From the NCBI GenBank assembly GCA_965221705.1, contig OZ244908.1, positions 1,011,564 through 1,075,563 of the forward strand: DNA of 64,000 nucleotides. Reading direction: 5' to 3'. Positions 8,683-64,000 of the stretch are shown here, in pieces. Numbering within the stretch: the stretch's first letter is position 1; each line of letters opens with the position of its first letter. This stretch comes from Dehalococcoidia bacterium (GTDB lineage Bacteria > Chloroflexota > Dehalococcoidia > Bin125). The translations under genes and the position numbers were made by a program. Under the pieces are notes generated by a model that was given only the letters and a program-made list of their open reading frames with translations, was not told the DNA's origin and did not search any database.

Positions 8683-10470
8683 CTACTCCTCGATGCTGAC
8701 GAAGCGGAGGTGCGGAATCACCATGCGGGTGGGCTCGTAGCCGCTCACGTATGGCTTGACCACCTCGTGCGCGACCGAGTAGTAGAGCGGAATCCAGACG
8801 GCGTCCTCGACCAAGGCGCGATCGACCTGTTGGTAGATGTTCGTGCGCAGTTCAGAGTCTTGCGAGTAGCGCGCCTGCTCGAGCAGTTCGTCAATCTCGT
8901 CGTCGGCCAACTGGACGTCGTTACCGAGTGAGGCGCTGTGGAACTTGTAGTCGAGCACGTTGTGCGGGTCGGGATAGTCGAGGCTCCAACCGAGCGAGAA
9001 GAATCCGTACAGTCCGCGGTCGATGTCAGAGATGAAGCTGGCGAACTCGACTTGTTGGATCTCGACCTCCAGGCCCAGATGCTGCCGCCACATGTCCTGG
9101 ATCGCCTCAATGCTGGGTCCCGGCGTCGCGCCGGCGCCGGAGATGGTCAAGCGGATTTCGTCCACCAACGTGGTGCCGGCGTACCGCGACGCGGCCAGGT
9201 AGTCCTGGGCCAGTTCGGGATCGAAGACGAGGCCGGGATAGTCAGCGTCGTGCGCGGCGAGACCCGGCGGAATGATCTGACGCGCCTGGACGAGCAGGTC
9301 GGCCTGCACTTCTTGCGTGATTGTGGTCTTGTCGATCGCGTGCGCCAGGGCGAGTCGCAGGTTGACATCGTCAAACGGCGGCGTCGCGACGTTGAAGGCG
9401 AGGTAGAAGATCGAGAGCTCGGAGCGGCTCACATATTGCGAGTTGAGATCGGACGCCGGGTCGCGCACGCGCTCGATCTCATTGATGCCAACGAACGCCT
9501 GATCCAGTTCGTCGTTTTCGAACTGTTCGATCGAACCGCCGGCGAAGCGGACTGAGACACGCTCGACCTTGGCCGGTTCGAGGTGGTAGTCGTCAAACCG
9601 CTCGAGTGTGAGGCCCTCGCCCAGCTGCCAATCGGTCAGACGGAATGGTCCGCTGCCGTTGGGCACGAGCGCCCAGCGCTCGGGATCGGCTTCGACCTGC
9701 TCGCGGTCGAGCACGTAGGCGGTGGGGTAGGTCAGCTTGTAGAGAAACACCTCTGTTGGGCGAGCGATGGTGAGGTCGAGCGTTTGCTCATCGATCACCT
9801 GGATGCCGACGACTTCGTCGGCGCGTCCGCGGACGAATTCCGCGGCGCCGACGATGTCGCCGAGGAAGTCAGGCGCAGTCGGCGAGAGCGTCTCCGGGTC
9901 GAGATTGCGCTCGAGGCTCCACTTGAAGTCCTCGGCGGTGATTCGCCTGCCATCATGGAAGGTGGCGTTGTCGCGAATCGTGAATCGATACGTGACGGTG
10001 CCGTCGTCATTGTTGGTCGGCGACGGAACTGCCTCCGCCAGGTCGGGCGCGATGCGCAGGTCACGATCAAGAACGAGCAGGCCGCCGAAGATCTCGACTG
10101 CGATCACAGCTGACGTGACGTCGGTGATCTGGGCCGGATCGAGGTTGATCGGCTCGCCGCGGGCGATGCGGAACTCGCCGCGGGCACGAGCAGCGGAGGA
10201 ACCGCCGGATGACGCCTGCTCAGTCGCCGCCTGGTTCTGTTGCTGGTCAACGGTTGACTGGCGATCTTGGCGCGACTGTCCGTCGTCCTGTTGAGGTTGC
10301 TCCGACGAGTCGCGATCGACCCTCGACGCGTTCTGCTGTGACTGGTCGTCTTGACTCTGCTGGGCGTCATCGCCGCTGCAGGCGGCGAGCGCCAGTGTGA
10401 GCGCCACGATCCCGCCGACCAACCAGATCCGCCCATACTTCGCCAGCCGCATCATGCGCATCGCACGCAT
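8683..10470 (-). CDS. ABC transporter substrate-binding lipoprotein (family 5, peptide/nickel) with a Q/D/S-rich low-complexity linker
   Basis: Family-5 solute-binding domain, a lipoprotein signal peptide with lipobox LALAAC, then about 80 aa of Q/D/S-rich linker. The ORF runs to 10587 but that would overlap aspS, so the internal start MRAMRMMRLAKYG at about 10470 is preferred. Confidence 0.8.
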   Translation of the reverse strand: MRAMRMMRLAKYGRIWLVGGIVALTLALAACSGDDAQQSQDDQSQQNASRVDRDSSEQPQQDDGQSRQDRQSTVDQQQNQAATEQASSGGSSAARARGEFRIARGEPINLDPAQITDVTSAVIAVEIFGGLLVLDRDLRIAPDLAEAVPSPTNNDDGTVTYRFTIRDNATFHDGRRITAEDFKWSLERNLDPETLSPTAPDFLGDIVGAAEFVRGRADEVVGIQVIDEQTLDLTIARPTEVFLYKLTYPTAYVLDREQVEADPERWALVPNGSGPFRLTDWQLGEGLTLERFDDYHLEPAKVERVSVRFAGGSIEQFENDELDQAFVGINEIERVRDPASDLNSQYVSRSELSIFYLAFNVATPPFDDVNLRLALAHAIDKTTITQEVQADLLVQARQIIPPGLAAHDADYPGLVFDPELAQDYLAASRYAGTTLVDEIRLTISGAGATPGPSIEAIQDMWRQHLGLEVEIQQVEFASFISDIDRGLYGFFSLGWSLDYPDPHNVLDYKFHSASLGNDVQLADDEIDELLEQARYSQDSELRTNIYQQVDRALVEDAVWIPLYYSVAHEVVKPYVSGYEPTRMVIPHLRFVSIEE

Positions 10471-49573: not shown

Positions 49574-50131
49574 GTGATCGCGGGTCGACGCAGCCGCTTC
49601 GGTTCTGGCTGGACCGTTGACCGAGAGGAACTGCTTGACCTGATCGACCGCCTGCGCCTGGCGGCCCCGGCCTCGGCGGATCAGGCGCAACGACTTTTGG
49701 AAGAGCGTGAGCAGCTGCTCCAGCAGACGCAGGAGGAGGCGGCGATTCTCGCCGCCCAGGCTCGGCGGGACGCCGAGCAGCAAGTGTCCTTGCACGAGTT
49801 GGTGACCAATGCCGAGGCGCGCGCGGAGAGCATCCTCGCGCAGGCGCACGAGACGGCGACAGACACGTTGAGACGAGCCAATGACGAGGCGGCCGCCGTT
49901 CGCGGGCAGGCGACGACCGAAGCGGTCTCGCAGGCGCTTGAGGCCGACCGGTACTCGCTTGAGATGCTGCGCCGACTGGGCGATCAGCTGCGTTCGATGC
50001 AGACCTCAGTCAGCGGCGCGATCGACCAGCTCGAGCTCAAGGTGACGCAGGGCGAGGAGTCGCAGGAGATCGACCGCCGCGATGAAACAGCGCGGCGCGC
50101 GCTGGCTCACCGCGAGCTGGACGATGTCTAA
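49574..50131 (+). CDS. Hypothetical coiled-coil protein (Ala/Glu/Arg/Gln-rich)
   Basis: 185-aa ORF with an unambiguous in-frame GTG start and strongly helical, repetitive composition. No recognisable catalytic motif; function unknown. Confidence 0.5.
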   Translation: MIAGRRSRFGSGWTVDREELLDLIDRLRLAAPASADQAQRLLEEREQLLQQTQEEAAILAAQARRDAEQQVSLHELVTNAEARAESILAQAHETATDTLRRANDEAAAVRGQATTEAVSQALEADRYSLEMLRRLGDQLRSMQTSVSGAIDQLELKVTQGEESQEIDRRDETARRALAHRELDDV

Positions 50132-50149
50132 TCGAGAGCTCGTTGGCGG

Positions 50150-51229
50150 CTAGCTCACGGCCTCCGCGACTCGCGGTCGCGGCGCCAGCGGATGCCCGAC
50201 GGCCTCACCGACGCGCTCGAGCGAGCGCATGAGCCCGTCGAAGTTGTCGAACGTCAGCGACTGCGGCCCATCAGAGAGCGCATGGTCGGGGCTGTCGTGG
50301 ACTTCGACCATGAGGCCGTCGGCGCCCACCGCCATCGACGCGCGCGCCATCGGCTCGACGAGGTACCAGTGACCGGTGCCGTGCGCCGGATCGCTGACGA
50401 TCGGCAGGTGGCTGAGTCGCTTGACGACCGGGATCGCTGAGAGGTCGAGCGTGTTGCGGGTCGAGGTTTCGAAGGTGCGGATGCCGCGTTCGCAGAGGAT
50501 GACGTCGCGGTTGCCCTTGGACATGATGTACTCAGCGGCGAGCAGCCATTCGTCGATCGTGGCCGAAAGGCCGCGCTTGAGCATGACCGGCTTGCGCGCC
50601 AGACCGACTTCGTCGAGCAACATGAAGTTCTGCATGTTGCGCGTTCCGATCTGCAGGATGTCGGCGTAGCGAGCCACGAGTTCGACATCGCGCGCGTCCA
50701 TGACTTCGGTGATCACCGGCAGCCCGGTCTCTTCGCGCGCCGTCGCCAGGTGCTGGAGACCTTCTTCGCCGAGGCCTCGGAACGCATAGGGAGAGGTGCG
50801 CGGCTTGAACGCGCCTCCGCGCAGGATCTGCGCTCCCGAGGCGGCCACGGCCTTGGCCGTCGTGACCATGTGCTCTTCGTTCTCAATCGAACAGGGGCCA
50901 GCCATGACGACCATCGAGCCGTCGCCAATCTTGACGCCGCCGACATCGATCACGGTGTCGTCCTTTTGGAACTCGCGTCCCGTCAGCTTGTACGGACGTG
51001 AGATGGCGATGACCTCTTCGACGCCGGCCATGCGGCTCATGGCGGTGCGAATGTCGGGATCGCCGATGACGCCGACGGCGCCGATCACGACTCGTTCCTC
51101 ACCGGGGGAGAGGTGTCCTTCGAGGTTGACTTCCTTGAGTCGGGCGAGCACACCGCGAACCTCTTCATCGGTGGCGCCTATTTTCATCACAATCAGCATG
51201 GTTCGATCCTTCTCGCTCATCTGGTCCAC
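50150..51229 (-). CDS. aroG: 3-deoxy-7-phosphoheptulonate (DAHP) synthase, class I-beta (KDO8P-synthase-like) with an N-terminal regulatory domain
   Basis: Core sequence (VMAGPCSIE..., [24 protein letters not shown]..., SDPAHG) matches AroA(I-beta)-type DAHP synthases with an about 80-aa N-terminal ferredoxin-like/ACT-like extension. Confidence 0.85.
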
Positions 51230-51274
51230 CTACCAGTGTTACTGGCATCGTGGCGCTGGTTCTGGGTAGAAGCG

Positions 51275-51679
51275 TTAATCCTCTGAATCCGCTGTCAGAT
51301 CGGGACGAAGGATTTTCGCCCCTCGCAGGTAGACGTGTTCCATCTCTCTCTGCCGCAATGGCGTGTTGACATGCAAGAGAATGCGCAGGCACGAGTCCAA
51401 CGCTCCTGGCACTTGCATCTCATGCGCGCACATCAGCGCGGCGTGATCGAGTTTGAACTGCTGTCGTGCAACGACGGCGGGGAATTCCGCGTTGACGTCG
51501 GGCGTCGTCGTGAACCAGGCCGAGGCGACCTCATCGATGTCGAAGTGGTTGCGGGCGATCATTTCACCGAGCAACTCTTCGGTGGCTTCACGAATGTCGG
51601 CCGGCGAGTTGCTGGTCACGGTCGTTGCGCCGCGAATGCCTCTTAGTCGCCAGGCTGATTCGGAGTCACGGTTCGACAT
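51275..51679 (-). CDS. aroH: Chorismate mutase, AroH class (monofunctional)
   Basis: LRGIRGATTV..., ...TPDVNAEFPA..., ...HVYLRGAKILRPDL align well with Bacillus AroH-type chorismate mutase. Confidence 0.85.
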   Translation of the reverse strand: MSNRDSESAWRLRGIRGATTVTSNSPADIREATEELLGEMIARNHFDIDEVASAWFTTTPDVNAEFPAVVARQQFKLDHAALMCAHEMQVPGALDSCLRILLHVNTPLRQREMEHVYLRGAKILRPDLTADSED

Positions 51680-51861
51680 CGTCAGGTGGTTCGCTGGTTC
51701 GGTTGGTTGACACGCGCAGTGTCGAGGGTTGAAGCGGGGCGATCAGCGGAGCGACGTAGGGCGTCGCGCAGCGATCTAGCGGCCAGCCACAAAGTCGCCG
51801 GCCGCGGAGATATAGACGCAATCGTTGAACAGCAGCTGAACGGTGATGCTGCGAATGCTCA

Positions 51862-52743
51862 TCAGGCTGTCTCTTCACTCCGGCGGCCGGTTACCACCTC
51901 GAGAAAGCGCTCGACGGCCTGCGGGCGGCCCTCGGCGGGCGTCGACGCGATAGTCGCAGTCAACGCTGAGCCGATGATAGCAGCATGCGCGACATCGCCG
52001 ACGGCTTCGACATGCTCACGTCGGCTGATGCCGAATCCGACCGCCAACGGCGTGTCAGTTTGCGTTCGCACGCGCTGTACGAACGACGCCATGTCGTCGG
52101 GCAGTTGGTTTCGTTCCCCGGTGACGCCGGTCAAGGACAAGACATAGATAAATCCTGACGCGCGCTCGACGGTGGACGCGATGCGCTCCTCGGTCGAGGT
52201 CGGCGCGAGGAAGTAGATCAGCGAGATGCCATGTTGGGCGAAGACCTCGCGCGTCGCCTCTGATTCGTCGGCGGGCAGGTCGACGACGATGATCCCATCG
52301 GCCCCGGCCTCGGCCGCGCGGCGGGCGAGCGGTTCGAGCGGTCGAGCGACCGCCTGGCCTGGTCTGTCGTCAGTCTCGGTCGAGTCGCGTTGCGCCTCTG
52401 ACCAGGCGAGGAAGGGATTGAGATAGCCCATCAGCGTGAGCGCTGTGTCGGGGCCTGCTTCGCGCGCGATTCGGACGGCGTCGAGCGCCGTGTCGACGGT
52501 GGCGCCGGCATCGAGCGCGACGTTGTAGGCCTCTTGATGCGTCGGCCCGTCAGCGATCGGGTCGGAGAAGGGCACGCCGATCTCGAATCCCGCCGCGCCG
52601 CCGCGCAGCGCCGCGCGGACCAAGTCCGGCGTTTCTGCGGGTGTGGGAAAACCGGCGATGAGGAAGGGGAAGACCAACGGTCCATCGCCGCGAGCCTCCG
52701 CCGCCGCGAAGGCCTCTCGGTAGCGCTTGCCTGGTTCGGACAT
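51862..52743 (-). CDS. trpA: Tryptophan synthase alpha chain
   Basis: FPFLIAGFPT, GFEIGVPFSDPIADGP and GFGIS motifs. Confidence 0.9.
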   Translation of the reverse strand: MSEPGKRYREAFAAAEARGDGPLVFPFLIAGFPTPAETPDLVRAALRGGAAGFEIGVPFSDPIADGPTHQEAYNVALDAGATVDTALDAVRIAREAGPDTALTLMGYLNPFLAWSEAQRDSTETDDRPGQAVARPLEPLARRAAEAGADGIIVVDLPADESEATREVFAQHGISLIYFLAPTSTEERIASTVERASGFIYVLSLTGVTGERNQLPDDMASFVQRVRTQTDTPLAVGFGISRREHVEAVGDVAHAAIIGSALTATIASTPAEGRPQAVERFLEVVTGRRSEETA

Positions 52744-52752
52744 CCTGCCTCC

Positions 52753-53508
52753 TCAACCGAGCTGTTGGGCCACGGTCGTTGAAAACCCGATCACATTGAA
52801 GCCCATGTGCGCCATCGACGCAGCGGTGAGCGATCCTGTGCGCATGTACACGATGCCGAGCGCCACGCCCGCCACCGCGAATGGAATCAAACTACCGAGA
52901 TCGGCGTGCAGCGCCGAGAATATCGAGGCTGAGATTGCGACAGCCGGGATTGCGCCCCAGTGCGGTCGCAGTCCGCCGAGAACGAATCCTCGCGCGAACG
53001 CTTCCTCGTAGATCGGCGCGCAGATGATGACGAGGAAGCCCAGCGCGACAATCACCGATGTGTGTTCGAACAGTCGAGGATCGCTAATCGTCGACTCGGG
53101 CTCGAGCGCCTCTACGCCTATGGCCTGGACGATCAACCCATACACCGTGAGTACCACCACGATGGTGAGCACTGCGCCGACCGCCCAGGCGACGTCGTTG
53201 GGCGTCGGACGACGCCAAGAGATAGCGTTCGAGCCGCGTCGTCGGCGCAGGATCAGTCTTGGCAGGATGAACCAGCCCAGCATGCCGGCGATCAGTTGAC
53301 CGAAGACGACGATCAGCAGTCCCGCCTCGCTGGTCGCCTCTGACGCGCCGTCGACCTCGCTAACGACGGCGAGCGTGACTGCGGTGACGAGCACCCAGAC
53401 CAGGGTGCAGAGCAGTCCCCAGCCAACGAGTTGCAGACCGGCCAGGCCGTGGTCGACGGACTGTTCGTCCTGGACGGATTCAGTGAGCTCGAGATCGGGC
53501 TGTGTCAT
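52753..53508 (-). CDS. CPBP-family intramembrane metalloprotease (CAAX protease / Abi-like), copy 2
   Basis: Multi-transmembrane protein with CPBP motifs (EExxxR-like EEAFARGFVLG, FxxxH-like IFSALHADLG, and HMGFN). Confidence 0.75.
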   Translation of the reverse strand: MTQPDLELTESVQDEQSVDHGLAGLQLVGWGLLCTLVWVLVTAVTLAVVSEVDGASEATSEAGLLIVVFGQLIAGMLGWFILPRLILRRRRGSNAISWRRPTPNDVAWAVGAVLTIVVVLTVYGLIVQAIGVEALEPESTISDPRLFEHTSVIVALGFLVIICAPIYEEAFARGFVLGGLRPHWGAIPAVAISASIFSALHADLGSLIPFAVAGVALGIVYMRTGSLTAASMAHMGFNVIGFSTTVAQQLG

Positions 53509-54377
53509 CCGACGCCGTATTCAATCAGTAGGACGGTCGTGACGCCGAGATTCCATGATGCATGCGTCAGCGCCGGCGCGATCAAGTGCTTGGTGCGGAT
53601 GTACATGACGCCGAGTATGAGTCCGAAGACGGCGAAGGGAATGATGACTTGCAGGTTGAAGTGCACGGCCGAGAACAGCAGCGCGCTCAGCGCGAGCGAG
53701 GGAATCAGCCACCAGACGCGATTCAGCCCGCCCAGCATGAATCCGCGGAAGAACGTCTCCTCGACGATTGGCGCCACGATGACAGCGCTCGCGGCGAACA
53801 ACGCTGCGTGCCACCAGGTGAAGAAGACGGTGACCTGAGCATCGTCTGGCCAAGGGAGCGGCAGCGCCCACTCCCAGCCGGTCCAGGGAATGACAGCCCA
53901 GTAGGCGAACCAGAAGGCGACCATGAGCGCCAGCGCGGCGGCTATCCACTTGGCGTCCTGACGGGTGGGTCGACGCCAGGCGACGAGGTAGTTCGCGCGA
54001 TGTCGCTTCAGGATCCAGCGTGGAATCGCCACCCAACAGATGACGGACGCTACCACCCCGCCTGCGACGGTGACGACAAACCACCAATCCCAACCAAGGG
54101 ACTCATGGGCCGACGTTTCAATGAGCAGAACGTACAATCCGCCGAGCAGAACGAATGAGAGCACCGTCAGAAACAGGACGCGCACGAGCATCCGCACTCG
54201 GCCGAGGGTCCGTTCGGGCATCGGTTCGGCCGAAACGGGACGTGTCGCGACGGGTTGGTCATCTGACGGCGGCGAGTACGGAAGTGACGCCGGCGGCGCC
54301 GGTCGGGCGACGAGCGCCAGGGCGGCCTGTTGGTGGGCGGGCCGCGCCACGAGCTCCATGTCGCCGTCGGGCGTCAT
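53505..54377 (-). CDS. CPBP-family intramembrane metalloprotease (CAAX protease / Abi-like), copy 1
   Basis: [20 protein letters not shown] and HASWN motifs. Tandem paralogue of the downstream gene, with 4-nt overlaps to both neighbours. Confidence 0.75.
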
Positions 54378-55555
54378 GTCGCTCGCGATTCGAGGGCGTC
54401 GCGGACGATCTCGACATCTTTGTCGCCGCGGCCTGAGAGACCGATCAGGATGACCTGGTGGGGACTCATCGTCGGCGCGAGCTTGGCCGCGTACGCGATC
54501 GCGTGCGCGGTCTCTAAAGCGGGGATGATGCCTTCCGTCTCCGAGAGCAGCTGGAGTCCGTCGAGCGCTTCGTCATCGGTGACGGAGACGTATTCGGCGC
54601 GTTCGGTCAGCATCAGGAAGGCGTGCTCGGGACCGACGCCGGGATAGTCGAGACCGGCCGAGATCGAGTGCGCCTCGGTGATCTGTCCGTGAGCGTCCTG
54701 CAGGACGTAGGTCCGCGTGCCATGCAGCACGCCTGGCGAGCCGGCTGAGAGGGTTGCCGCGTGTCGAGCCTGGAGTCCCTCGCCGGCGGCCTCGACGCCG
54801 ATCAGACGTACGGGGTCGTCAACGAAGGGGTGAAACAGACCGATCGCGTTGCTGCCGCCGCCGACGCAGGCGATGGCGACGTCGGGCAGCGCGCCGAGGC
54901 GCTCGTGCAGCTGCTGTTTCGCTTCACGGCCGATACACGACTGCAGCTCGCGGACGATCAACGGATAGGGATGCGGGCCGATCGCGCTGCCGATCAGGTA
55001 GTGCGTCGTTCGGACATTGGTGACCCAATCGCGGATCGCCTCGTTGATGGCGTCCTTGAGCGTCTGCGAGCCCGATTCGACGGGGACAACCTCCGCGCCC
55101 AACAACTGCATGCGAAAGACGTTGAGCGCCTGTCGACGGATGTCCTCCGCGCCCATGTAGACAATGCACTCGATGCCGTATCGGGCGCAAGCGGTCGCGG
55201 TGGCGACGCCGTGTTGACCGGCGCCGGTTTCGGCGATGATGCGAGGCTTGCCCATGCGTCGAGCGAGCAGCACCTGACCAACCGCGTTGTTGATCTTGTG
55301 CGCTCCCGTGTGGGCCAGATCCTCGCGCTTGAACCAGATCTGGGCGCCGCCCAGTTGTTCCGTCAGTCGAGGAGCGAACGTCAGCGGCGTCTCGCGTCCG
55401 ACGTATTCGCGCAGCATCTCATCGAGCTCGAGCCGAAAGGCGGGATCGTCCTGCGCCTCGGCCCAGGCCGCCTCGAGTTCGTCCAGCGCCGGCATCAACG
55501 TTTCGGGCGCAAACTGTCCGCCGAATGGGCCGAAGGCTCCTGATGTATCGCTCAC
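54374..55555 (-). CDS. trpB: Tryptophan synthase beta chain
   Basis: Canonical TrpB sequence with the PLP-lysine region ([13 protein letters not shown]) and GGGSNAIG motif. Confidence 0.95.
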
Positions 55556-56235
55556 GAGTCGTCCTCGCTCTTGGCCGCGGCGACGAACGCGCGGATCTTG
55601 GTCTGGTCTTTGACGCCGTCCGTCTCGACTCCTGAAGAGACATCGACGGCCCAGGGTCGCACGGCGCGCACCGCTTCACGGACGTTGTCAGGGGTGAGTC
55701 CGCCCGACAGCACCAGACGCCGTTGGGCGGCGACGTCGGCGGCGACTGACCAATCGATCGTCTTACCGCTGCCGCCGCCCTGTTTGGATCGAGCGTCGAG
55801 CAAGGCGATCGCGGAGGGCGCGCGGTCGATCTCGCACAATACCGCTGGCGCGTCCATGCTCTCGTCGACATGGACGGCGCGGACAACGGCCCGTTTGATT
55901 CGAGTGGTCAACGCCGGATGCTCTCCGCCGCTGAGCTGCACGATGTCAAGGTCGACTTGGTCGAGCACGCGCTCGATCTCATCTACTGACTGCCGCGCGA
56001 AGACGCCCACGAGCAGCGGACGGCCAGCCGCGCGACGTTCGCGCTCGACGGTGTCGGGCGTTGCTTCGAGGACTTGAATGCGCGGACCGAGCTCTCGCCG
56101 CACGGCTCGGGCGACGGGCATGTCGATCCGCCGCGGCGCGTCGGCGAAGATCATGCCGACGGCGTCGGCGCCGGCTTCACGAGCCCAGACGGCGTGCTCG
56201 ACTGCGCGAACGGAGCAGATTTTGACGAACGTCAT
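55552..56235 (-). CDS. trpF: N-(5'-phosphoribosyl)anthranilate isomerase
   Basis: KICSVR..., GADAVGMIF and [10 protein letters not shown]...VDVSSGVE motifs. Confidence 0.85.
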
Positions 56236-57017
56236 CGTCCCAACAACTCTCGCGCCGCGGCTCGCGGATCGGCCGCGGTCGATAGCGCCTCGCCGATCAG
56301 GACGGCATTGACGCCGCAGGCTTCCATGCGCTGCATGTCAGCTCTCGTGCGCACGCCGCTGGCGGCGACGACCGGGATGTGCGATGGAATCTCGTCACGC
56401 AGACGTTCGGTCGTGCCCAGGTCTTCTGTGAAGGTGTGCAGGTCGCGGTTGTTGATGCCGATCGCCGCAGCGCCCGCTTCGAGCGCCATCGAGGTTTCGC
56501 GCGCGTCGGTGACTTCGACGAATGGCGTCAGATCGAACTCCTCGCCCGCCTCAATCAGCGATCGGAGCGCGGTGGCGTCAAGCGTCTTTGCGATCAGCAG
56601 ATAGGCGTCCGCGCCGAGCGCCGCCGCCTCAGCGACTTGGTAGCGATCGACATGAAACTCCTTGCGCAGGATCGGCAGACCGCTGCCTGAGAGCGTCTCG
56701 ACGACGTCACAGAGATCGTCGTCGGAGGCGAAGAACGCCGGCGACGTGAGCACGGAGACGGCGATCGCGCCGATCTCGCGGTAGGTCGCGGCCAACTCGC
56801 GAGGCGACAAGTCCGGCGCGAAGAGACCCTTCGAGGGCGAGCCGCGTTTGACCTCGGCCATCAGTCCGACGCCGGGCTGTTTGAGCGCGGCGATGAAGTC
56901 GGTTCGCGACGACCGAGCGAGCGCTCGTTGGCGCAGGGCTTCGATTGGCAACGTCGCCTGACGTTCCGCGACGGCGGCGCGGGTGTCGTCGACGATTTGC
57001 TCCAACACCGATGGCAT
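56232..57017 (-). CDS. trpC: Indole-3-glycerol phosphate synthase
   Basis: ALKQ...GLMAEVKRGSPSKG, ...IGINNRDLHTF... IGPS motifs. Confidence 0.9.
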   Translation of the reverse strand: MPSVLEQIVDDTRAAVAERQATLPIEALRQRALARSSRTDFIAALKQPGVGLMAEVKRGSPSKGLFAPDLSPRELAATYREIGAIAVSVLTSPAFFASDDDLCDVVETLSGSGLPILRKEFHVDRYQVAEAAALGADAYLLIAKTLDATALRSLIEAGEEFDLTPFVEVTDARETSMALEAGAAAIGINNRDLHTFTEDLGTTERLRDEIPSHIPVVAASGVRTRADMQRMEACGVNAVLIGEALSTAADPRAAARELLGR

Positions 57018-57026
57018 GCGTGCGTC

Positions 57027-58109
57027 CTATGCCCCTGAGTCGGCGCCCGAGTCAGCGCCTGCGGCGATCGCCTGCGAACGCTCGACGAACAGTTCCAGCT
57101 TACGCAGGGCGCGTTGATCGTCGATGCATTCGGCCGCGCGACTGACGCCTTCGGCGAATGTGGGCACTTCTTCAGCGGCGAGCAGTCCGGCGGCGGCGTT
57201 GAGGGTGACGAAGCCTGTCAGCGCCGAAGTCTGACCACCGAGGACGGCGCGCATCATTGCAGCCGACTCGTCGGCGGTTGCGCCGCCCCGAACCTCGGAA
57301 AGCGCGACGGGTCTGATCTGCACGTCTTGCGGCGAGACGGTGAACTCGGACAGCTCGTCGCCGTCGATCTGCCAACAGGTGGTTGGACCCTCTGGCGAGA
57401 CCTCGTCCAGTCCTTCGTGTCCGTGCACGACGAGTCCGCGCCGCAGTCCGAGCCGACCCAGCGCCGCAGCCATGAGCGGTCCCAGCTCGGGTCGCGCAAC
57501 GCCGATCAGCTGATGCGTCGCTCGGGCGGGGTTGGTCAGCGGACCGAGGATGTTGAAGACGGTGCGGACGCCGATCCGACGCCTGATCGGCGCGACGTGC
57601 CGCATAGCGGGATGAAACCCCTGCGCGAACAGGAAGCCAAAGCCCACTTCACGGAGCAACTCGGCGGCCTGCGCTGGTTGGAGCGTGATCTGCCCGCCGA
57701 GCGCCTCAAGCACGTCGGCGCTGCCAACGCTCGATGACATGGCTCGATTGCCGTGCTTGGCGACGGGCACGCCGCAACCGGCCATGACGAACGCGGCTGC
57801 GGTCGAGGCGTTGAACGCGTGCGTCCCGGAGCCGCCCGTACCGGCGGTGTCGGCGATGCGGGGCAGGTCGGAGAGGTCGACTTCGAGCGCATGCGCGCGC
57901 ATCGCGCGCGCGAGGCCGACGACCTCATCGACGGACTCGCCCTTCATGCGCAAACCCGTGAGCAGCGCCGCCGCTTGCACTTCGTCGGCCTCGCCGGACA
58001 TCAGAGCGTCCATTGCCGACGACGCCTCGGCGTCGGACAAACTGCGCCGTTCGTCGACGATGGCGTTCAGCGCGGCCGCGAGGTCGGCCGTCGGAGCGGC
58101 TGAACTCAT
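57027..58109 (-). CDS. trpD: Anthranilate phosphoribosyltransferase
   Basis: DTAGTGGSG, HGNRAMSSSVGSADVLEALG and surrounding TrpD sequence. Confidence 0.9.
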   Translation of the reverse strand: MSSAAPTADLAAALNAIVDERRSLSDAEASSAMDALMSGEADEVQAAALLTGLRMKGESVDEVVGLARAMRAHALEVDLSDLPRIADTAGTGGSGTHAFNASTAAAFVMAGCGVPVAKHGNRAMSSSVGSADVLEALGGQITLQPAQAAELLREVGFGFLFAQGFHPAMRHVAPIRRRIGVRTVFNILGPLTNPARATHQLIGVARPELGPLMAAALGRLGLRRGLVVHGHEGLDEVSPEGPTTCWQIDGDELSEFTVSPQDVQIRPVALSEVRGGATADESAAMMRAVLGGQTSALTGFVTLNAAAGLLAAEEVPTFAEGVSRAAECIDDQRALRKLELFVERSQAIAAGADSGADSGA

Positions 58110-58747
58110 CGCGCCGCCTCAGAAGTCGCGGCGTCGGGGCGCTCGTTGTGCCAGGCCTCAGATTGGTCGAGGAAGTTGCGCAGCAGCGCGTGACCGACTT
58201 TGGTGCGGATCGACTCGGGGTGGAACTGGACGCCCTCGATCGGATAGTCGGTGTGTCGCAGACCCATCAGCACGCGACCGTCGCCGTTGTGACGCTCACA
58301 CCAGGCGGTCGGCGTGAGCTCGGGCGGGAGCGTATCGGGGTCGACGGCTAACGAGTGATAGCGTACCGCCTCGACGGGATTGGGCAACCCGACGAAGACG
58401 CCGCCGCCGTCGTGCTCGATCGGCGATGTCTTGCCGTGTCGAATCTCGCCGGCGGGTCCGATGGTTGCGCCGAACGCGGCGCCGATCGATTGATGTCCGA
58501 GGCAGACGCCCAAGGTTGGAGTTGTCGGACCGAACCGCTGCAACACGGGCACGCTGACGCCGGCTTCGCGCGGCGTTTTGGGGCCAGGCGAGATCACGAT
58601 CCGACGCGGCGCCAGTTCCTCGATCTCGTCGAGCGAGATCTGGTCGTTGCGATGCACGACGACCTCAGCGCCGAGCTCGCAAAGGTACTGATAGAGGTTG
58701 TACGTAAACGAGTCGTAGTTGTCGATCAGTAACGTATCAATCGCCAT
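58106..58747 (-). CDS. trpG: Anthranilate synthase component II (glutamine amidotransferase TrpG/PabA)
   Basis: LLIDNYDSFTYNL, GVCLGHQ (catalytic Cys) and the HPES motif. Confidence 0.9.
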   Translation of the reverse strand: MAIDTLLIDNYDSFTYNLYQYLCELGAEVVVHRNDQISLDEIEELAPRRIVISPGPKTPREAGVSVPVLQRFGPTTPTLGVCLGHQSIGAAFGATIGPAGEIRHGKTSPIEHDGGGVFVGLPNPVEAVRYHSLAVDPDTLPPELTPTAWCERHNGDGRVLMGLRHTDYPIEGVQFHPESIRTKVGHALLRNFLDQSEAWHNERPDAATSEAAR

Positions 58748-59543
58748 CGTTGGAGGCCTCGCGTTCTCTGAGGATGCGTCGCAGCGTGCGGTAGCCCTCG
58801 ACTGCGCGGGGGAATCCGCAGTAGGGCGCGGCGGTCGCCATGACGCCCTCGAGCTCCCGCTCAGTGACGCCGTGGTTGAGCGCGCCGGGGATGTGGAACT
58901 GCAGCTCGTCGGGCTTGGTCAGCGCGACAAGGATTGAAACGACCACGAGCGAGCGGTCGCGTCTGGAGAGTTGCGTCCTGGGCCAGAGGTCGCCGAAGGC
59001 GAATTCGAAGGCCAGCTTGCCGACCGCTCCGATGCGCTCCATGCCGGCCAACGCCTCGGCTGGATCTTGCGCTTCGTCTTGACCGTTGAGCGTGCGCATC
59101 ACTTCGACGGCGTCGCGGTGGCGCTGGTCGTCGTCTTTGTGATCGGCGGGCGGGATGCGATAGGGCTCGCCGTCCGCTTCCGACCACATTTCGACCAGCA
59201 CGTTGACCATCTCGTTGCCGGCCGGGAATCCAGAGTAGCCCGCGATCTGCAGGGCGATTTCGATCATCTCCTCGCGCGAGACGCCATTGGCTGGTCCGAA
59301 GCTGGCATGGAATCTCACCGCCTGCAGTCGCTCGAGCGCGCCGAGCATGGCGAGGGCGACGATGGTTCGGTCGCGTCGCGACAGCTCGTCGCCTTGCCAC
59401 ACCTGGCCAAAGACGTAGTCGACGACGAATGAGCCGAACGCGCCGTTCTGTTGCTCAATGGCGTCACCGATGGCGTCGGGTCGGCCGGTCATTTCGGACA
59501 GCAACGAGCTGCCCGCTGCGCGTCGTTCTGCATGTGTCGGCAT
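58737..59543 (-). CDS. Carboxymuconolactone decarboxylase (CMD/AhpD-like) family protein with two tandem CMD domains
   Basis: Two repeats of the CMD-family pattern (FGQVWQGDELSRRDRTIVALAMLGAL...IAGYSGFPAG and FGDLWPRTQLSRRDRSLVVVSILVAL...APYCGFPRA). The ORF extends to 59738; the preferred start is MPTHAERRAAG at about 59543. Confidence 0.7.
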   Translation of the reverse strand: MPTHAERRAAGSSLLSEMTGRPDAIGDAIEQQNGAFGSFVVDYVFGQVWQGDELSRRDRTIVALAMLGALERLQAVRFHASFGPANGVSREEMIEIALQIAGYSGFPAGNEMVNVLVEMWSEADGEPYRIPPADHKDDDQRHRDAVEVMRTLNGQDEAQDPAEALAGMERIGAVGKLAFEFAFGDLWPRTQLSRRDRSLVVVSILVALTKPDELQFHIPGALNHGVTERELEGVMATAAPYCGFPRAVEGYRTLRRILREREASNDGD

Positions 59544-59599
59544 AGTGATCCTCGTCTCAATGCGACCTGCGCGCCTGAAGCGCGAGCTTGGCGCGCATT

Positions 59600-60898
59600 C
59601 TACGGAGCCTCTTGCTGTGAGGTTGCGGACGGGTCGGAACGCAGTCGCTGCAGCACGCGCGCCGCGTCGGATGATCGGGGCAGGCCGCAGAAGGCTGAGA
59701 CGATGGCGATCACGCCATCGAGCTCGTCCCAGTTGCAACCAAGCCGATGCGCCGTGTGGAGGTCTTGTTCGAGCTCACGCGTGCGGCCGATCGCCGTGTG
59801 CATCGCCAGGACGGCGATCGCGCGATCTCGCTGCGAGAGCTGAGTTCGGTTCCAGACATCGCCCCAGGCCCAGTCGACGGTGAGCCGACCGACCGAGCCG
59901 AGCTGTCGTTGCGCGTCTTGCGCAATGGCGTCGGGACTGTTGGTTCGACCGGTCAGCATCTCTGACACGGCAGCGGCGTCTCGTCGCCGCGCGTCGTCGT
60001 CCTTGCCGATAGCCGGACTTGGCCGATACGGCTCGCTGGTTCGGCTCCAATCGGAAAGCATTCTGGTCAGGCAGGCGTTGGCGAAGGGGAAGCCGCACTC
60101 GACTGACAGCTGGACACAGATCTCGACGATTTCGTCGCGGCCGAGGCCGTTGCGTTCGCCGATCGATGCGTTGAATGCGAATGCGTCGACCTGCATCAGC
60201 GCGCCCGCGGCGGACATCGCGGCCAGACTGCGGTCGCGTCCATTCAGCTGATCGTCCTGCCAGATGTCTCCCCAGATGTGGTCAATGAGGTAGGAGCCGA
60301 ACGCTCCCATTCGCGACTCGATGGCGTTGGCGAAGTCGTCTTGCCGAGTGAGCTGCGAGAGCAGCGCGGCGCCGGCCTCGCGCCGCTCGTCGTGTGTGCG
60401 GGTCGGGATCGGCTCAGACGCGGGCGACGGCTCGTCCGCGAAGAGCGCGTCGAGGCTGGAGTCCGTCTCGAAGTCCCAACCCTGCTCGATTCTTTGGATC
60501 ACCGTCGAGAGCAACTCCGCTTGGGCCAGTGGCAGTTCGGCGATCGCTGAGCTGACGTCCCACCATTCCATCGCGTCGAAGGGGTTGTTCTCATCGGATG
60601 GCGCGCCGTCGAGCGCGGCCTCGACGGAAACGACGTATGCGTTGTGCACCGTGTGTCTGCCGCTCTGCGGTTCGTCGCCGAAGACCGTGTGCGCGTACGC
60701 GGCGCTGACTCGTTGACGCAGGAGGCGCGCGAAGAATCTCGGCACGGTCTGGTCGGGATCTTCGCTGAGCGGCGTGACATCGCCGGGCAGCCACCAGGAG
60801 TCGGGCCAGAGCGACTCGCGCTCGCGCCGCCGAAGCAGCATCACGCGTCCGGCATCGTCGAAGACGACGCCGTAGCCGATGATCAGCGACTCTGGCAT
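59600..60898 (-). CDS. Fusion protein: degenerate Nudix-fold domain plus two CMD (carboxymuconolactone decarboxylase-family) domains
   Basis: Nudix-fold N-terminus (GYGVVFDDAGRVMLLRRRERES...WWLPGD) in which the Nudix box lacks the REx2EE glutamates, followed by two CMD repeats paralogous to the downstream gene (WGDIWQDDQLNGRDRSLAAMSAAGAL...; WGDVWNRTQLSQRDRAIAVLAMHTAI...FCGLPRS). The start overlaps the trpE stop as TGATG. Confidence 0.7.
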   Translation of the reverse strand: MPESLIIGYGVVFDDAGRVMLLRRRERESLWPDSWWLPGDVTPLSEDPDQTVPRFFARLLRQRVSAAYAHTVFGDEPQSGRHTVHNAYVVSVEAALDGAPSDENNPFDAMEWWDVSSAIAELPLAQAELLSTVIQRIEQGWDFETDSSLDALFADEPSPASEPIPTRTHDERREAGAALLSQLTRQDDFANAIESRMGAFGSYLIDHIWGDIWQDDQLNGRDRSLAAMSAAGALMQVDAFAFNASIGERNGLGRDEIVEICVQLSVECGFPFANACLTRMLSDWSRTSEPYRPSPAIGKDDDARRRDAAAVSEMLTGRTNSPDAIAQDAQRQLGSVGRLTVDWAWGDVWNRTQLSQRDRAIAVLAMHTAIGRTRELEQDLHTAHRLGCNWDELDGVIAIVSAFCGLPRSSDAARVLQRLRSDPSATSQQEAP

Positions 60899-62406
60899 CA
60901 GTAGCCCTTGGATCCCTGCGTGGCGCGAGCGCTGCTCGAGCGCTGCTCGGCGAGATCGAGCGCGGTGAACATACCCATCGCCTTGTTGACGGTCTCCTCG
61001 AACTCCGCTGTCGGCTTGGAGTCGAAGACGATGCCGCCGCCGGCCTGGACTGAGGCGACCCCGTCCTGCATCACGATGGTGCGAATCGTGATCGCAGTCT
61101 CCATGCTGCCGCTGAATCCGAAGTAGCCGAGCGCGCCCGCATAGGGTCCGCGTTGATCTTCCTCGAGCTCGGAGATGATCTCCATGGCGCGAATCTTCGG
61201 CGCGCCTGAGACCGTGCCGGCAGGGAAGGTCGCGCGGACGGCGTCGAATGCGGTCGCGCCCTCGGCCAACTCCGCCTCGACGTGCGAGACCAGGTGCATC
61301 ACGTGGCTGTAGCGCTCGACATCGAGCTCCTGGGTGACGCGGACGGTTCCCGGTTTGGCGACGCGGCCGATGTCGTTGCGACCCAAATCGAGCAGCATGA
61401 CGTGTTCGGCGATCTCTTTCTCGTCAGAGCGCAGCTCGGCCTCGAGCTCCTGATCTTCTTCCTCTGTGAGACCTCGACGTCGCGTGCCGGCGATGGGATG
61501 GGTCGAGACTTTACCGTCTTCGACGATGACCAGCAGCTCGGGCGAGGTGCCGACGATCTGATGGTCTTCCATCTCGAGGTAGTACGTGTACGGCGACGGA
61601 TTCACGGTGCGCAGCGTGCGATAGACGTTGAACGGATGGACGAACGTCTCGCGGGAGAATCGCTGCGAATAGACGCACTGAATGATGTCCCCGGCGACGA
61701 CCAGGTCGATGATCTGTTTGACATCGGAGAAGTACGCCTCACGCTCCATGTTGGAGCGAATCGAGGTCGAGTGACCAGCGGGCATGGGCGCGTCGGCGGG
61801 CGGGATCGGCGTGTTGGACTGCAATCGGTCGACGATCTCGTCGATACGGAACTCAGCGGCGCGATAGGCGGCGTCCGGGTCGCCGTCGAGGCGCGCGTGC
61901 GTGACGACCTTGATCACGTGCTTGAGGTGGTCGAAGAGCAGCACCGTGTCGACGAACTGAAACAGCGCCTCGGGCAGTCCGTGCGGATCGTGTTCGGCCG
62001 GCTGCACTCGAGGCTCGAAGTGGCGGATCGACTCGTAGCTGAGATAGCCGACTGCGCCGCCGAGGAACGGTGGCAGGTCTGGATTGGGCAACGGATTGAA
62101 GCGCTTGAGTTCCGCTTCGATCTCATCCAGTGGATCGACGTCGCCGCCCGCGGGCGCGCGAAAGACTCGATACGGCTCGGTGCCGATAAACGAGTAGCGG
62201 CTCGGGCGTTCGCCTCCCTCGACCGACTCGAGCAGGAACGAGTAGGCGCCGCGTTTGACCTTGAGGAAGGCCGAAACGGGCGTCTCGAGGTCGGCGAGCA
62301 CCTCTCGATAGACGGTCGCGTAGTTTGCGTTGCCCGACGCCTGGGCGTCAGCGGCGAGCTGCTTGAATGTGTCGAGACTGGGTGTGGTGAGTCCGGGCGA
62401 GGACAT
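60898..62406 (-). CDS. trpE: Anthranilate synthase component I
   Basis: Canonical TrpE sequence (LLESVEGGERPSRYSFIG..., ...GAVGYLSYE..., ...SPELLV..., ...GTLSGAPKIRAMEII...GPYAGALGYF) starting MSSPGLTT. Confidence 0.95.
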   Translation of the reverse strand: MSSPGLTTPSLDTFKQLAADAQASGNANYATVYREVLADLETPVSAFLKVKRGAYSFLLESVEGGERPSRYSFIGTEPYRVFRAPAGGDVDPLDEIEAELKRFNPLPNPDLPPFLGGAVGYLSYESIRHFEPRVQPAEHDPHGLPEALFQFVDTVLLFDHLKHVIKVVTHARLDGDPDAAYRAAEFRIDEIVDRLQSNTPIPPADAPMPAGHSTSIRSNMEREAYFSDVKQIIDLVVAGDIIQCVYSQRFSRETFVHPFNVYRTLRTVNPSPYTYYLEMEDHQIVGTSPELLVIVEDGKVSTHPIAGTRRRGLTEEEDQELEAELRSDEKEIAEHVMLLDLGRNDIGRVAKPGTVRVTQELDVERYSHVMHLVSHVEAELAEGATAFDAVRATFPAGTVSGAPKIRAMEIISELEEDQRGPYAGALGYFGFSGSMETAITIRTIVMQDGVASVQAGGGIVFDSKPTAEFEETVNKAMGMFTALDLAEQRSSSARATQGSKGY

Positions 62407-62427
62407 ATGCGGTCACTCCGGGTGTCA

Positions 62428-62459
62428 GTGTCGATAGCGCGCAGAGACGCTGTCGACAC
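62428..62459 (-). promoter_or_regulatory. Strong near-perfect hairpin (12-bp stem, 8-nt loop) in the trpE 5' leader, about 20 nt upstream of the start codon; possible attenuator or terminator
   Basis: The minus-strand sequence gtgtcgaCagcg-tctctgcg-cgctAtcgacac forms 11 of 12 base pairs. It lies in a 233-nt untranslated leader between gmk and trpE. Confidence 0.3.
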
Positions 62460-62639
62460 TCGGCGAATGGGCTGATGATCAGCCTCGCCAGACCCCTTGG
62501 CCGCCGGAGGTGTGACATTGAGCGGAGGGACGCAGCGGCGCCACGAGTTCAGTGGTTCTGTCTCGCCGGTGAATCGGCATGGTCGACTCCGCGCCTCACC
62601 TTCGTACCGCCAGCTTAGGCTAACTGACCCGTCCAGCGC

Positions 62640-63257
62640 TCAGCAACGTAGCGTAGATGACTGGTTGGCGGTCGACCGGAGTTCGCGTTCCCGTTGAATC
62701 AGCTCGAGCAGCTCGGCGGCGGCATCGTGATGCGCGTCGTCGTCGTTGATGATCACGGCGTCGAACCAGCCGGACTCGGACATCTCGGCGGATGCCGCGG
62801 CGAGGCGGCGGGCGATCTCAACTTCGCTCTCCGCGCCTCGCTCTCGCATGCGTCGTTCGAGCGCGTCTGCGTTGGGCGCCGTGATGAACACGAGCAGCGG
62901 GTCGGCCAGATTCCGCTTCAGCGACCGCGCGCCCTGGACATCGGTGCGCAGGATTACGGTCCGTCCCTGCTCGAGCAGCGCCTCGACAGCGGCTCGAGGC
63001 ACGCCGCTGCGGTGTCCGTAGACCTCGGCGTGTTCGAGGAAGGCGTCGGCGCTGAGCCAGCGATCGAATTCCGCTTCGCTGAGGAAGACGTGATGCACGC
63101 CTGCGATCTCGCCGGAGCGCGGAGCGCGCGTCTTGACGGTTGCGACCTTCGCCAGCGAGGCGTCACTCGCCATGGCTGCTTCGATCACGGTGTCTTTGCC
63201 CGCTCCGGACGGACCGGAGACCACGACCACCAGCGGCGGCGGCTCAGTCGGCGACAT
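62640..63257 (-). CDS. gmk: Guanylate kinase
   Basis: P-loop VVVSGPSGAGKDT and the following GMP-binding region (KTRAPRSGEIAGVHHVF...FLEHAEVYG). Confidence 0.85.
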   Translation of the reverse strand: MSPTEPPPLVVVVSGPSGAGKDTVIEAAMASDASLAKVATVKTRAPRSGEIAGVHHVFLSEAEFDRWLSADAFLEHAEVYGHRSGVPRAAVEALLEQGRTVILRTDVQGARSLKRNLADPLLVFITAPNADALERRMRERGAESEVEIARRLAAASAEMSESGWFDAVIINDDDAHHDAAAELLELIQRERELRSTANQSSTLRC

Positions 63258-64000
63258 GACTGAGCCGTTCGAGGTCGCGCCAGAATGATGGATAGGAGAT
63301 CCTGACCGCCTCGGCGCCGGCGATGGTCGTGGGGCCCGATTCGGGGTCGGAGGCCAGTGCGGAGACCGCCGCGGCCATGGCGAGTCGGTGATCGGCGTGC
63401 GATTCGACAGCCGCGCCGCGCAAGGCGCCGCCCACGATGCGCATGCCGTCGGGCCAGGTTTCGACTTGGACGCCCATTGCGCGCAGCATGGCCGAAGTCG
63501 CCTCGATCCGGTCGGACTCTTTTACGCGCAGCTCGGCGGCGTCGTGGATTTCGGTCACGCCATCGGCCAACGCGGCGGCGACGGCGAGGACGGGCAGCTC
63601 GTCTACAGCGCGAACGACTGTATCGCCGTCGATCTGAGTGCCGCGCAAGTGTGAGCCGCGCACAACCAGGTCGGCGACTGGCTCGCCCGACACGTTGCGC
63701 TCGTTGTGCTGTTCAATACGCGCGCCCATGCCGCGCAGGACGTCGATCACGCCGGTTCGCCGAGGGTTGACGCCAACGTGAGGCAATCGCACCTCCGAGC
63801 CGGGCAGCATCGCCGCCGCGACCATCCAGAACGCCGCTGCGCTGATGTCGCCTGGCACGTTGACATCCAGTGAGCGCAGGGGCGCGCCGGGTCGGATGCG
63901 CAGGGTCAGGCCGTCGACGTCAATGTCAGCGCCCATGGCGATCAGCATGCGTTCGGTGTGATCGCGGGATGGTCCTGGTTCGACGATGCGGCTGGATCCG
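63244..64000 (-). CDS. aroA: 3-phosphoshikimate 1-carboxyvinyltransferase (EPSP synthase), C-terminal part; the gene runs off the window end
   Basis: The C-terminal EPSP synthase sequence (LRVKESDRIEATSAMLRAMGVQVE..., ...DHRLAMAAAV) is recognisable, and the reading frame remains open to the window edge. Confidence 0.85.
   Translation of the reverse strand, partial: GSSRIVEPGPSRDHTERMLIAMGADIDVDGLTLRIRPGAPLRSLDVNVPGDISAAAFWMVAAAMLPGSEVRLPHVGVNPRRTGVIDVLRGMGARIEQHNERNVSGEPVADLVVRGSHLRGTQIDGDTVVRAVDELPVLAVAAALADGVTEIHDAAELRVKESDRIEATSAMLRAMGVQVETWPDGMRIVGGALRGAAVESHADHRLAMAAAVSALASDPESGPTTIAGAEAVRISYPSFWRDLERLSHVAD

Follow-up and report, generated by a model that had tools for sequence, protein, structure and literature searches.

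A tryptophan biosynthesis operon of a Dehalococcoidia bacterium (GTDB order Bin125) carries two additional genes between trpE and trpG. The operon lies in a stretch of 64,000 nt, referred to here as the window (assembly GCA_965221705.1, contig OZ244908.1, positions 1,011,564-1,075,563). The first additional gene, designated gene 1, encodes a Nudix-fold domain fused to two repeats of the carboxymuconolactone decarboxylase (CMD) family, while the second, CMD2, encodes a stand-alone double-CMD protein. Judging from sequence comparisons, the best explanation is that the pair represents a vertically inherited accessory module of the trp operon in one lineage of Dehalococcoidia, and it probably performs an undescribed accessory function attached to the tryptophan pathway.

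Organisation of the inserted genes

The minus strand of the window contains trpE, the Nudix-CMD fusion, CMD2, trpG, trpD, trpC, trpF and trpB, in this order (Table 1). According to Pfam, trpE and trpG are bona fide tryptophan genes. The Pfam CMD model (PF02627, cut-off 23) matched two stretches in each of the inserted proteins, with 63.8 bits for gene 1 and 105.6 bits for CMD2, and the CMD parts of the two proteins are 41% identical over 263 amino acids (E 6e-69). An original prediction, made by reading the sequence, had proposed two paralogous double-CMD genes at this place, the first of them fused to a Nudix domain, and these matches, together with the structural comparisons given below, bear it out. 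Its caveat that searches with hidden Markov models might place the proteins in another family does not apply, since both score above the PF02627 gathering threshold, have the all-helical CMD fold and retain their CMD assignment.

Both outer junctions, read directly in the sequence, are those that had been predicted. In the TGATG at 60900-60896 the trpE stop codon (TGA, 60900-60898) shares its A with the start codon of gene 1 (ATG, 60898-60896), and the stop codon of CMD2 (TGA, 58739-58737) falls 11 nt inside trpG, which starts with the ATG at 58747-58745. Translational coupling of the inserted genes, also part of that prediction, stands at the trpE and trpG junctions but not between gene 1 and CMD2. 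The longest form of the second open reading frame (ORF), with a TTG start, spans 58737-59738 and would overlap gene 1 by 139 nt. The real start of CMD2 is most likely the ATG at 59543, because it is preceded by GAGGA and the relatives align from residue 1; residues 1-17 counted from this ATG are kept in every relative (tblastn matches begin at query residue 1). This start leaves a spacer of 56 nt, and therefore the two inserted genes appear not to be coupled to each other in the window.

All of these genes lie on the same strand, with close or overlapping start and stop codons and conserved synteny, and trpD, trpC, trpF and trpB are contiguous, with short overlaps (span 54374..58109, minus strand). 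No promoter-like site was called by a consensus scan of positions 53000-64000. Between 54400 and 62400, from trpE to trpB, no minus-strand terminator-like site was found, and the overall number of such sites in the scan did not exceed the expectation from shuffled sequences. The GC content of the inserted genes is uniform with that of their neighbours. This organisation points to co-transcription of gene 1 and CMD2 with the trp genes.

Table 1. Features of the trp operon in the window (positions of the window; all on the minus strand)
Feature	Position	Strand	Evidence
Leader ORF upstream of trpE, MPIHRRDRTTELVAPLRPSAQCHTSGGQGVWRG*, single conserved Trp codon	62479..62580	-	Present in 51 of 52 related loci; peptide conserved, codons varying synonymously
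trpE (anthranilate synthase component I, 502 aa)	60898..62406	-	Pfam Chorismate_bind 302 bits, Anth_synt_I_N 102 bits
Gene 1 (432-aa ORF, Nudix-fold domain and two CMD repeats)	59600-60898	-	Stop codon TAG 59602-59600
Nudix-fold domain, aa 1-147 of gene 1	60458..60898	-	AlphaFold model, Foldseek, alignment of 23 orthologues, box mapping against 4dyw
Acidic/proline linker, aa 148-166 of gene 1, low confidence	60401..60457	-	pLDDT below 50 at 148-165; variable in alignment
Fused double-CMD part, aa 167-432 of gene 1 and stop codon	59600..60400	-	Pfam CMD in two stretches
Spacer between gene 1 and CMD2, 56 nt	59544..59599	-	Contains the GAGGA ribosome-binding site, 59553-59549
CMD2 (stand-alone double-CMD protein, 268 aa)	58737..59543	-	Both halves with intact gamma-CMD-type residues
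trpG (glutamine amidotransferase subunit, 213 aa)	58106..58747	-	Pfam GATase 187.8 bits
trpD	57027-58109	-	ORF; Pfam label on the identical locus L001
trpC	56232-57017	-	ORF; Pfam label on the identical locus L001
trpF	55552-56235	-	ORF; Pfam label on the identical locus L001
trpB	54374-55555	-	ORF; Pfam label on the identical locus L001

Conservation and selection

All 53 related loci with sufficient flanking sequence have the order trpE, Nudix-like gene, CMD2, trpG. At the trpE/gene 1 junction the reading frames overlap by 1 nt in 35 of these loci and are separated by at most 68 nt in the rest, and at the CMD2/trpG junction an overlap of 4, 8 or 11 nt is seen in 47. Because it recurs in every locus, together with these overlaps, the arrangement is far beyond chance. 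The distance between gene 1 and CMD2 ranges from -4 to 126 nt among the relatives, with a 4-nt overlap in 5/53 loci.

When one genome per species was scanned, CMD2 was present at 75-88% identity in 47 species-level metagenome-assembled genomes (MAGs) of Dehalococcoidia/Chloroflexota, all of them with the same arrangement. The gene order is thus conserved in related taxa, a check that the original prediction had called for. The 47 MAGs, which are represented among the 53 loci, belong to GTDB order Bin125. Many of them come from sponges, and the names of several point to such hosts. Among the relatives is bin125 from the sponge Aplysina aerophoba (PMC5649159), after which the order-level lineage Bin125 within Dehalococcoidia was named (PMC10608941).

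A protein search with gene 1 returned about 57 full-length relatives, with 40-74% identity, and about 25 shorter proteins that match its N-terminal part only; the latter take the place of gene 1 in the operon, again with the CMD gene after them. Of the 53 loci, 34 have a long gene 1 (387-453 amino acids) and 19 a short one (222-254 amino acids). Even where the identity of gene 1 falls to 49% and 40%, the neighbourhood consists of trpE, the Nudix-CMD gene, the CMD gene, trpG-D-C-F-B, one or two genes of CPBP proteases, trpA, chorismate mutase and DAHP synthase.

Identity to the proteins of the window was 81-89% for TrpE, 75-88% for CMD2, 73-84% for TrpG, 74-89% for TrpD, 64-80% for TrpC, 56-81% for TrpF and 52-77% for the Nudix-like domain. 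The range of CMD2 resembles that of TrpE, and CMD2 is more conserved than TrpC and TrpF. The ratio of nonsynonymous to synonymous substitution rates (dN/dS), taken as the median over 86 genome pairs, was 0.087 for CMD2, 0.116 for the Nudix-like domain, 0.111 for the fused CMD part and 0.056-0.119 for the trp genes. Since these values lie in the range of the trp genes, and more precisely in that of trpC and trpF, all three parts of the insertion are subject to purifying selection about as strong as that on the pathway enzymes.

Pseudogene status was rejected on the basis of these ratios (0.09-0.12), and recent horizontal insertion was rejected in view of the uniform GC content and the synteny over the whole clade. 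The more general explanation that the inserted genes are decaying or mis-annotated ORFs without function could appeal to the loss of family-invariant residues from the fused CMD part and to its truncation in 19/53 loci. It is effectively refuted already by the low dN/dS in all three parts, by reading frames that are intact in 47 species, by the conserved start/stop overlaps and by the confident AlphaFold models. The concern raised in the original prediction, namely an arrangement unique to this genome and showing pseudogenisation, does not apply for the same reasons, with 47 species sharing it and dN/dS near 0.1.

In some long-read metagenome assemblies the Nudix-CMD gene and trpC are broken up or distorted by frameshifts (P0249, P0083, the L002-related P0241, and locus L060 at 9001-10264), and these copies look like assembly errors rather than real pseudogenes. 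P0249, a seeming distant Nudix homologue, was discarded as one of them.

The Nudix-like domain

The Pfam NUDIX model (PF00293) scored gene 1 at 17.0 bits (E 0.006), below its cut-off of 21.1. With 50 homologues as input, residues 1-165 were modelled by AlphaFold at a mean predicted local distance difference test (pLDDT) of 86. The top 50 Foldseek matches of this model in the PDB were all Nudix-fold proteins, nearly all of them Nudix hydrolases, with E-values from 6e-9 to 3e-7 and template modelling scores that reach 0.76 relative to the length of the target and about 0.6 relative to that of the query. They include MutT1, RppH, DR1025 and the Nudix domain of NrtR (E 6e-9 to 1e-7). At the level of the predicted structure, the Nudix fold of the N-terminal domain is thereby confirmed.

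The canonical Nudix box, GX5EX7REUXEEXGU with its metal-binding glutamates, is not present in gene 1. Profile alignment to the MutT/NUDIX structure 4dyw showed that the box reads D40-x5-E46-x7-R54-F55-F56-A57-R58-L59-L60-R61-Q62, the segment R54-F55-F56-A57-R58-L59 taking the place of REUxEE. The first Glu (E46) and the Arg (R54) are kept; the initial Gly is replaced by D40 and the final one by R61. The glutamates of REUxEE correspond to F55, which is always hydrophobic in the family, to R58, which is variable, and to L59, an invariant Leu, and a conserved Glu never occurs at positions 55 and 58. Three of the four acidic residues of the box are therefore gone, and the same pattern holds in 23/23 aligned orthologues.

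The original description of the domain as degenerate, with a box that had lost its catalytic glutamates, is correct with regard to the box, but the domain as a whole is not simply degenerate. The orthologue alignment contains about 50 invariant columns in the Nudix-like domain, including five Arg and four Trp, and an invariant surface is made up of R24, R25, W35, W36, E46, D49, R54, R61, R81, H85, N86, Y88, D102, E103, N105, F107, D108 and W112. As judged from this alignment, the domain is not decaying and has a strongly conserved new surface, whose invariant residues look like a new binding site, conceivably a catalytic one, for an anionic, partly aromatic ligand.

No relative of the domain outside the clade was found in a word-indexed search of a 5.8-billion-protein collection, and a scan of 1.84 billion representative proteins found no outside relative of comparable strength. 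Throughout these searches the Nudix-like family was met only in the trpE/trpG context. The nearest outsiders in the latter scan, a profile search swamped by CMD matches, were P0292 and P0294 (E about 1e-15), which are closer to the canonical Nudix box and retain R-E-L-x-E. One of the two is fused to a region that reads as methyltransferase-like, and neither of them was informative.

CMD2 and the fused CMD copy

Comparison of CMD2 with known structures gave values of 24.9 for the double-domain CMD protein 4g9q, 14.3 for the putative gamma-CMD subunit 2q0t, 12.3 for AhpD (1gu9), 12.0 for gamma-CMD (2af7), 10.7 for the debrominase Bmp8 (6ohi) and 7.7 for Sestrin2 (5cuf). The PcaC equivalog model TIGR02425 assigned neither protein, the summed scores of two repeats being 125.5 bits for CMD2 and 90.1 bits for the fusion against a cut-off of 155.7. 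No pca genes (pcaB, pcaD, pcaHG) were found nearby, the neighbours being trp and aro genes only. CxxC motifs are absent from both proteins and no conserved Cys is present among the CMD2 orthologues, and AhpD- or Bmp8-type thiol chemistry was rejected on these grounds.

The alignment of the CMD parts comprised 31 CMD2 orthologues, 55 fused CMD parts and 86 generic double-CMD sequences from other phyla. All residues invariant in the generic set are retained in CMD2 (H79, Y103, H217, N223, H224, Y241 and the Arg-Asp-Arg motifs); H217, N223 and Y241 are also common to the gamma-CMD structure 2af7. In the 55 fused copies the replacements are H79N (54), Y103E/D (53), H217D/Q (46), N223R (47), H224L/F (43) and Y241F (53), and the structural Gly, Trp, Pro and Arg-Asp-Arg residues are retained. 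Because family-invariant polar residues were replaced and structural ones kept, the fused CMD copy is probably a pseudo-enzyme paralogue or a scaffold.

In the short forms of gene 1 the fused part is reduced to a remnant of 60-80 amino acids, which corresponds in the alignment to the latter half of a CMD repeat and differs in length between clades. Parsimony on a neighbour-joining tree of five concatenated Trp proteins, built without bootstrap, indicated that the long form is ancestral and that at least nine truncations occurred independently. Despite these truncations the Nudix-like domain and one intact double-CMD protein always remain, and they form the constant core of the module. In locus L059 (1303-3607) the roles of the two CMD copies appear to be exchanged. 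There the Nudix-fused copy is 72-74% identical to stand-alone CMD2 and keeps the family-invariant His, and the stand-alone copy carries H217Y and H224Q. Here the Nudix-like domain is naturally joined to a CMD of the active type, which argues that the two act together.

Three distant CMD2 homologues from other phyla (40-44% identity) were found in contexts unrelated to trp and to one another, which gave no functional lead; the association with the trp operon is therefore a recruitment specific to this clade. One of the homologues, P0211 (40% identical to CMD2), occurs in an unrelated bacterium (locus L056, 4997-6819), where it overlaps, by 4 nt, the stop codon of a gene for a zinc-type alcohol dehydrogenase. 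From this overlap one might suspect that the double-CMD family at large works with oxidoreductases; the two other contexts differed.

The two genes might instead be hitch-hikers with a function outside tryptophan synthesis, for example the detoxification of lactones or of aromatic or halogenated compounds in the sponge habitat, which would benefit from the strong, amino-acid-responsive expression of the operon. This is judged unlikely. The thiol chemistry of AhpD and Bmp8 is excluded as described above, the exact trpE/trpG position with overlapping codons was kept across deep divergence while the CPBP genes of the same operon evolve fast, and the Nudix-like family was never found elsewhere. 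PADLOC defence models did not match either of the inserted proteins.

Proposed function

The original prediction had suggested an accessory activity on chorismate or anthranilate, or ligand binding, as the function of the inserted genes, and this remains plausible from the sequence data. A more specific model, the likeliest of those considered, is put forward here tentatively, in which CMD2 is a gamma-CMD-like enzyme serving the anthranilate step and the Nudix-like domain is its tethered ligand-binding module. The two inserted proteins would be made together with the anthranilate synthase subunits. CMD2 would be the working part, a cofactor-independent enzyme resembling gamma-carboxymuconolactone decarboxylase in which both active-site halves are intact, and gene 1 would serve as an adaptor. 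Its Nudix-fold domain would no longer hydrolyse diphosphates, having evolved an Arg/His/Trp-rich pocket for an anionic ligand, and the disabled duplicate of CMD2 fused to it would dock this domain onto the CMD2 oligomer through CMD-CMD contacts. Acting at the anthranilate synthase step and catalysing no core step of the pathway, the complex would most likely convert or remove a carboxylated compound, either a side product or an analogue of chorismate or anthranilate, as metabolite proofreading or protection, with CMD2 activity being controlled by the ligand bound to the Nudix-like domain.

Several observations weigh against this model. Acidic residues E46, E47, D49, D102, E103 and D108 are conserved in the Nudix-like domain and may allow it a non-canonical catalysis. 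Since the fused CMD part was lost repeatedly, the module can evidently do without tethering via a full pseudo-CMD. Generic CMD2 relatives (40-50% identity) occur in unrelated, inconsistent contexts and are themselves uncharacterised, and therefore the chemistry attributed to CMD2 follows from family resemblance only. Finally, position in the operon is not in itself proof of a role in tryptophan synthesis.

Sestrin2, a double-AhpD-fold protein, binds leucine, and by analogy the Nudix-like and double-CMD proteins could be non-enzymatic regulatory subunits that bind tryptophan or an intermediate and modulate the assembly or activity of TrpE-TrpG. Such a role is regarded as doubtful, because CMD2 keeps the full His/Tyr/Asn/Glu set common to family members outside trp operons, which argues for retained catalysis. 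Moreover, TrpE of the window retains the LLES and NPSPY motifs, known from structures to form the intrinsic tryptophan feedback site of anthranilate synthase, and a conserved Trp-codon leader (see below) already offers regulation at the level of the operon; the need for an extra regulator would therefore be smaller.

It is still less probable that the module, housed in an aromatic supra-operon (tyrA-aroA-...-trp-aroH-DAHP synthase), substitutes as a non-orthologous replacement for a missing enzyme of the aromatic pathway. An aminodeoxychorismate-related lyase would be one example, and a prephenate decarboxylase/dehydratase working without a cofactor another. Genes for prephenate dehydrogenase, EPSP synthase, chorismate mutase and DAHP synthase are found in the surrounding cluster and, as far as the neighbourhood is concerned, no prephenate dehydratase was seen; the cofactor-free decarboxylation of an unsaturated carboxylate, which is gamma-CMD chemistry, would suit such a replacement. 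The position between trpE and trpG does not, however, point to phenylalanine or folate synthesis, and generic CMD2 relatives are not linked to aromatic biosynthesis.

Comparison with known systems

Both folds are known as families, and so are inactive sensor Nudix domains and pairs of a pseudo-enzyme with an enzyme. What appears to be new is the fusion of a catalytically dead Nudix domain to a CMD fold, its fixed and translationally coupled position between trpE and trpG, and the conservation of the inserted module at the level of pathway enzymes.

Catalytically inactive Nudix domains acting as ligand sensors are found in NrtR and in the AraR regulators of Bacteroides. Gene 1 resembles these in having a Nudix fold with a degenerate box and, by analogy, may bind a small molecule; Bacteroides AraR was a weak profile match to the Nudix-like domain (E 0.61, no stretch passing alone). 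Unlike NrtR and AraR, gene 1 lacks a winged-helix DNA-binding domain: Pfam and NCBIfam scans found no helix-turn-helix domain in it, and its C-terminal part is CMD. Since its partner is a (pseudo-)CMD fold, any regulation would act on a protein or enzyme and not on DNA.

The relation of CMD2 to the fused copy is like that of other active and pseudo-enzyme paralogues, in that the fused copy lost the presumed catalytic His, Tyr and Asn and the neighbouring copy keeps them. It differs from the known pairs in that the heteromer is a putative one and the pseudo-enzyme was repeatedly cut down to a remnant of 60-80 amino acids. Unlike PcaC, and for all its likeness to gamma-CMD (2af7) and the double-domain 4g9q, CMD2 scores below the equivalog cut-off, is not accompanied by pca genes and lies inside a biosynthetic trp operon. 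The CxxC motif of AhpD is absent here. Sestrin2, the eukaryotic leucine sensor composed of two AhpD/CMD-like halves, is not recognisably related to these proteins in sequence.

In several phyla, foreign genes are known to lie within trp genes or between them; Xie et al. (2003) and Merino et al. (2008) reportedly surveyed trp operons with inserted or split genes. The insertion described here differs from known ones in being translationally coupled and as conserved as the pathway enzymes. To our knowledge, no Nudix-like or CMD gene has been reported between trpE and trpG, and full-text literature searches returned no description of such an insertion.

Tryptophan biosynthesis is among the best-understood pathways and is generally regarded as complete. 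Two extra proteins that were kept in at least 47 species and are conserved like enzymes imply an added requirement at the chorismate-to-anthranilate step, candidates being the repair of metabolites, protection from analogues inside a sponge host with its rich chemistry, and a new mode of enzyme regulation. The module would provide a first functional foothold for the widespread, uncharacterised double-CMD family, and it is a further case in which a Nudix fold was put to non-catalytic use. With its repeated truncations, the pair of an active enzyme and a pseudo-enzyme offers a clean natural experiment in subfunctionalisation.

The trp leader and other features of the operon

Upstream of trpE a short leader ORF of 25-40 codons was identified in 51 of 52 related loci, about 260 nt from trpE in L002-L054. 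The peptide ends with R-P-S-A-x-C-(H/R)-T-(S/T)-G-G-(Q/E)-G-x-W-R, with its one invariant Trp codon 2-8 codons ahead of the stop. Among the loci the codons for Thr, Ser and Gly differ in their synonymous third positions, and therefore selection appears to act on the peptide itself. This ORF is probably the regulatory leader of the operon, and it is a candidate for a Trp-sensing leader or an arrest peptide. An Rfam scan of positions 50000-64000 (E up to 1) gave no match, and the leader was not found in the literature searched.

Most relatives have a sigma-70-like promoter before the leader ORF, with TTGACA, a 17-nt spacer and TAGGCT, TAGGAT or TAGCAT (about 130-230 nt upstream of trpE in L002-L054). 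Its counterpart in the window, TTGCTG-18-TAGCCT at about 62650-62620, is weaker and was not called by the consensus scan. Possible RNA elements lie in the leader-trpE spacer (62407-62527, minus strand) and in the corresponding region of related loci. The Gly-Val codons of the leader contain a GGGGU that is complementary to a C-rich stretch immediately 5' of the trpE Shine-Dalgarno sequence, and RNAalifold recovered this GGGGU/CCC pairing with little covariation. In 43 of 49 loci there is a hairpin whose 5' arm begins in the leader Trp codon and whose loop frequently includes, or lies close to, the stop codon of the leader; the inner-stem sequences differ between loci, and the energy is not better than that of shuffled sequences.

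That the tryptophan pathway of this lineage includes a so far unknown protein component, namely a ligand-gated gamma-CMD-like complex (dead-Nudix sensor plus CMD enzyme) partnering anthranilate synthase physically or functionally, and that a new Trp leader dependent on its peptide sequence controls the operon in addition, is conceivable, although rather unlikely. Such a complex might proofread a side product or analogue derived from chorismate or anthranilate, or be a regulatory subunit of a new kind.

Two genes of CPBP/Rce1-like intramembrane proteases (53505-54377 and 52753-53508, minus strand), with start and stop codons overlapping by 4 nt, separate trpB from trpA. Every related locus examined has one or two of these fast-evolving genes (28-67% identity), which make up another unexplained insertion into this operon.

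The trp leader is immediately preceded by a guanylate-kinase-like gene (62640-63257, minus strand), which overlaps the 3' end of aroA, encoding EPSP synthase (63244-64000, minus strand), by 14 nt. The order tyrA-aroA-gmk is conserved upstream of trpE among the relatives, and the region can therefore be described as an aromatic supra-operon, which ends with an AroH-type chorismate mutase followed by a DAHP synthase carrying an FXD domain.

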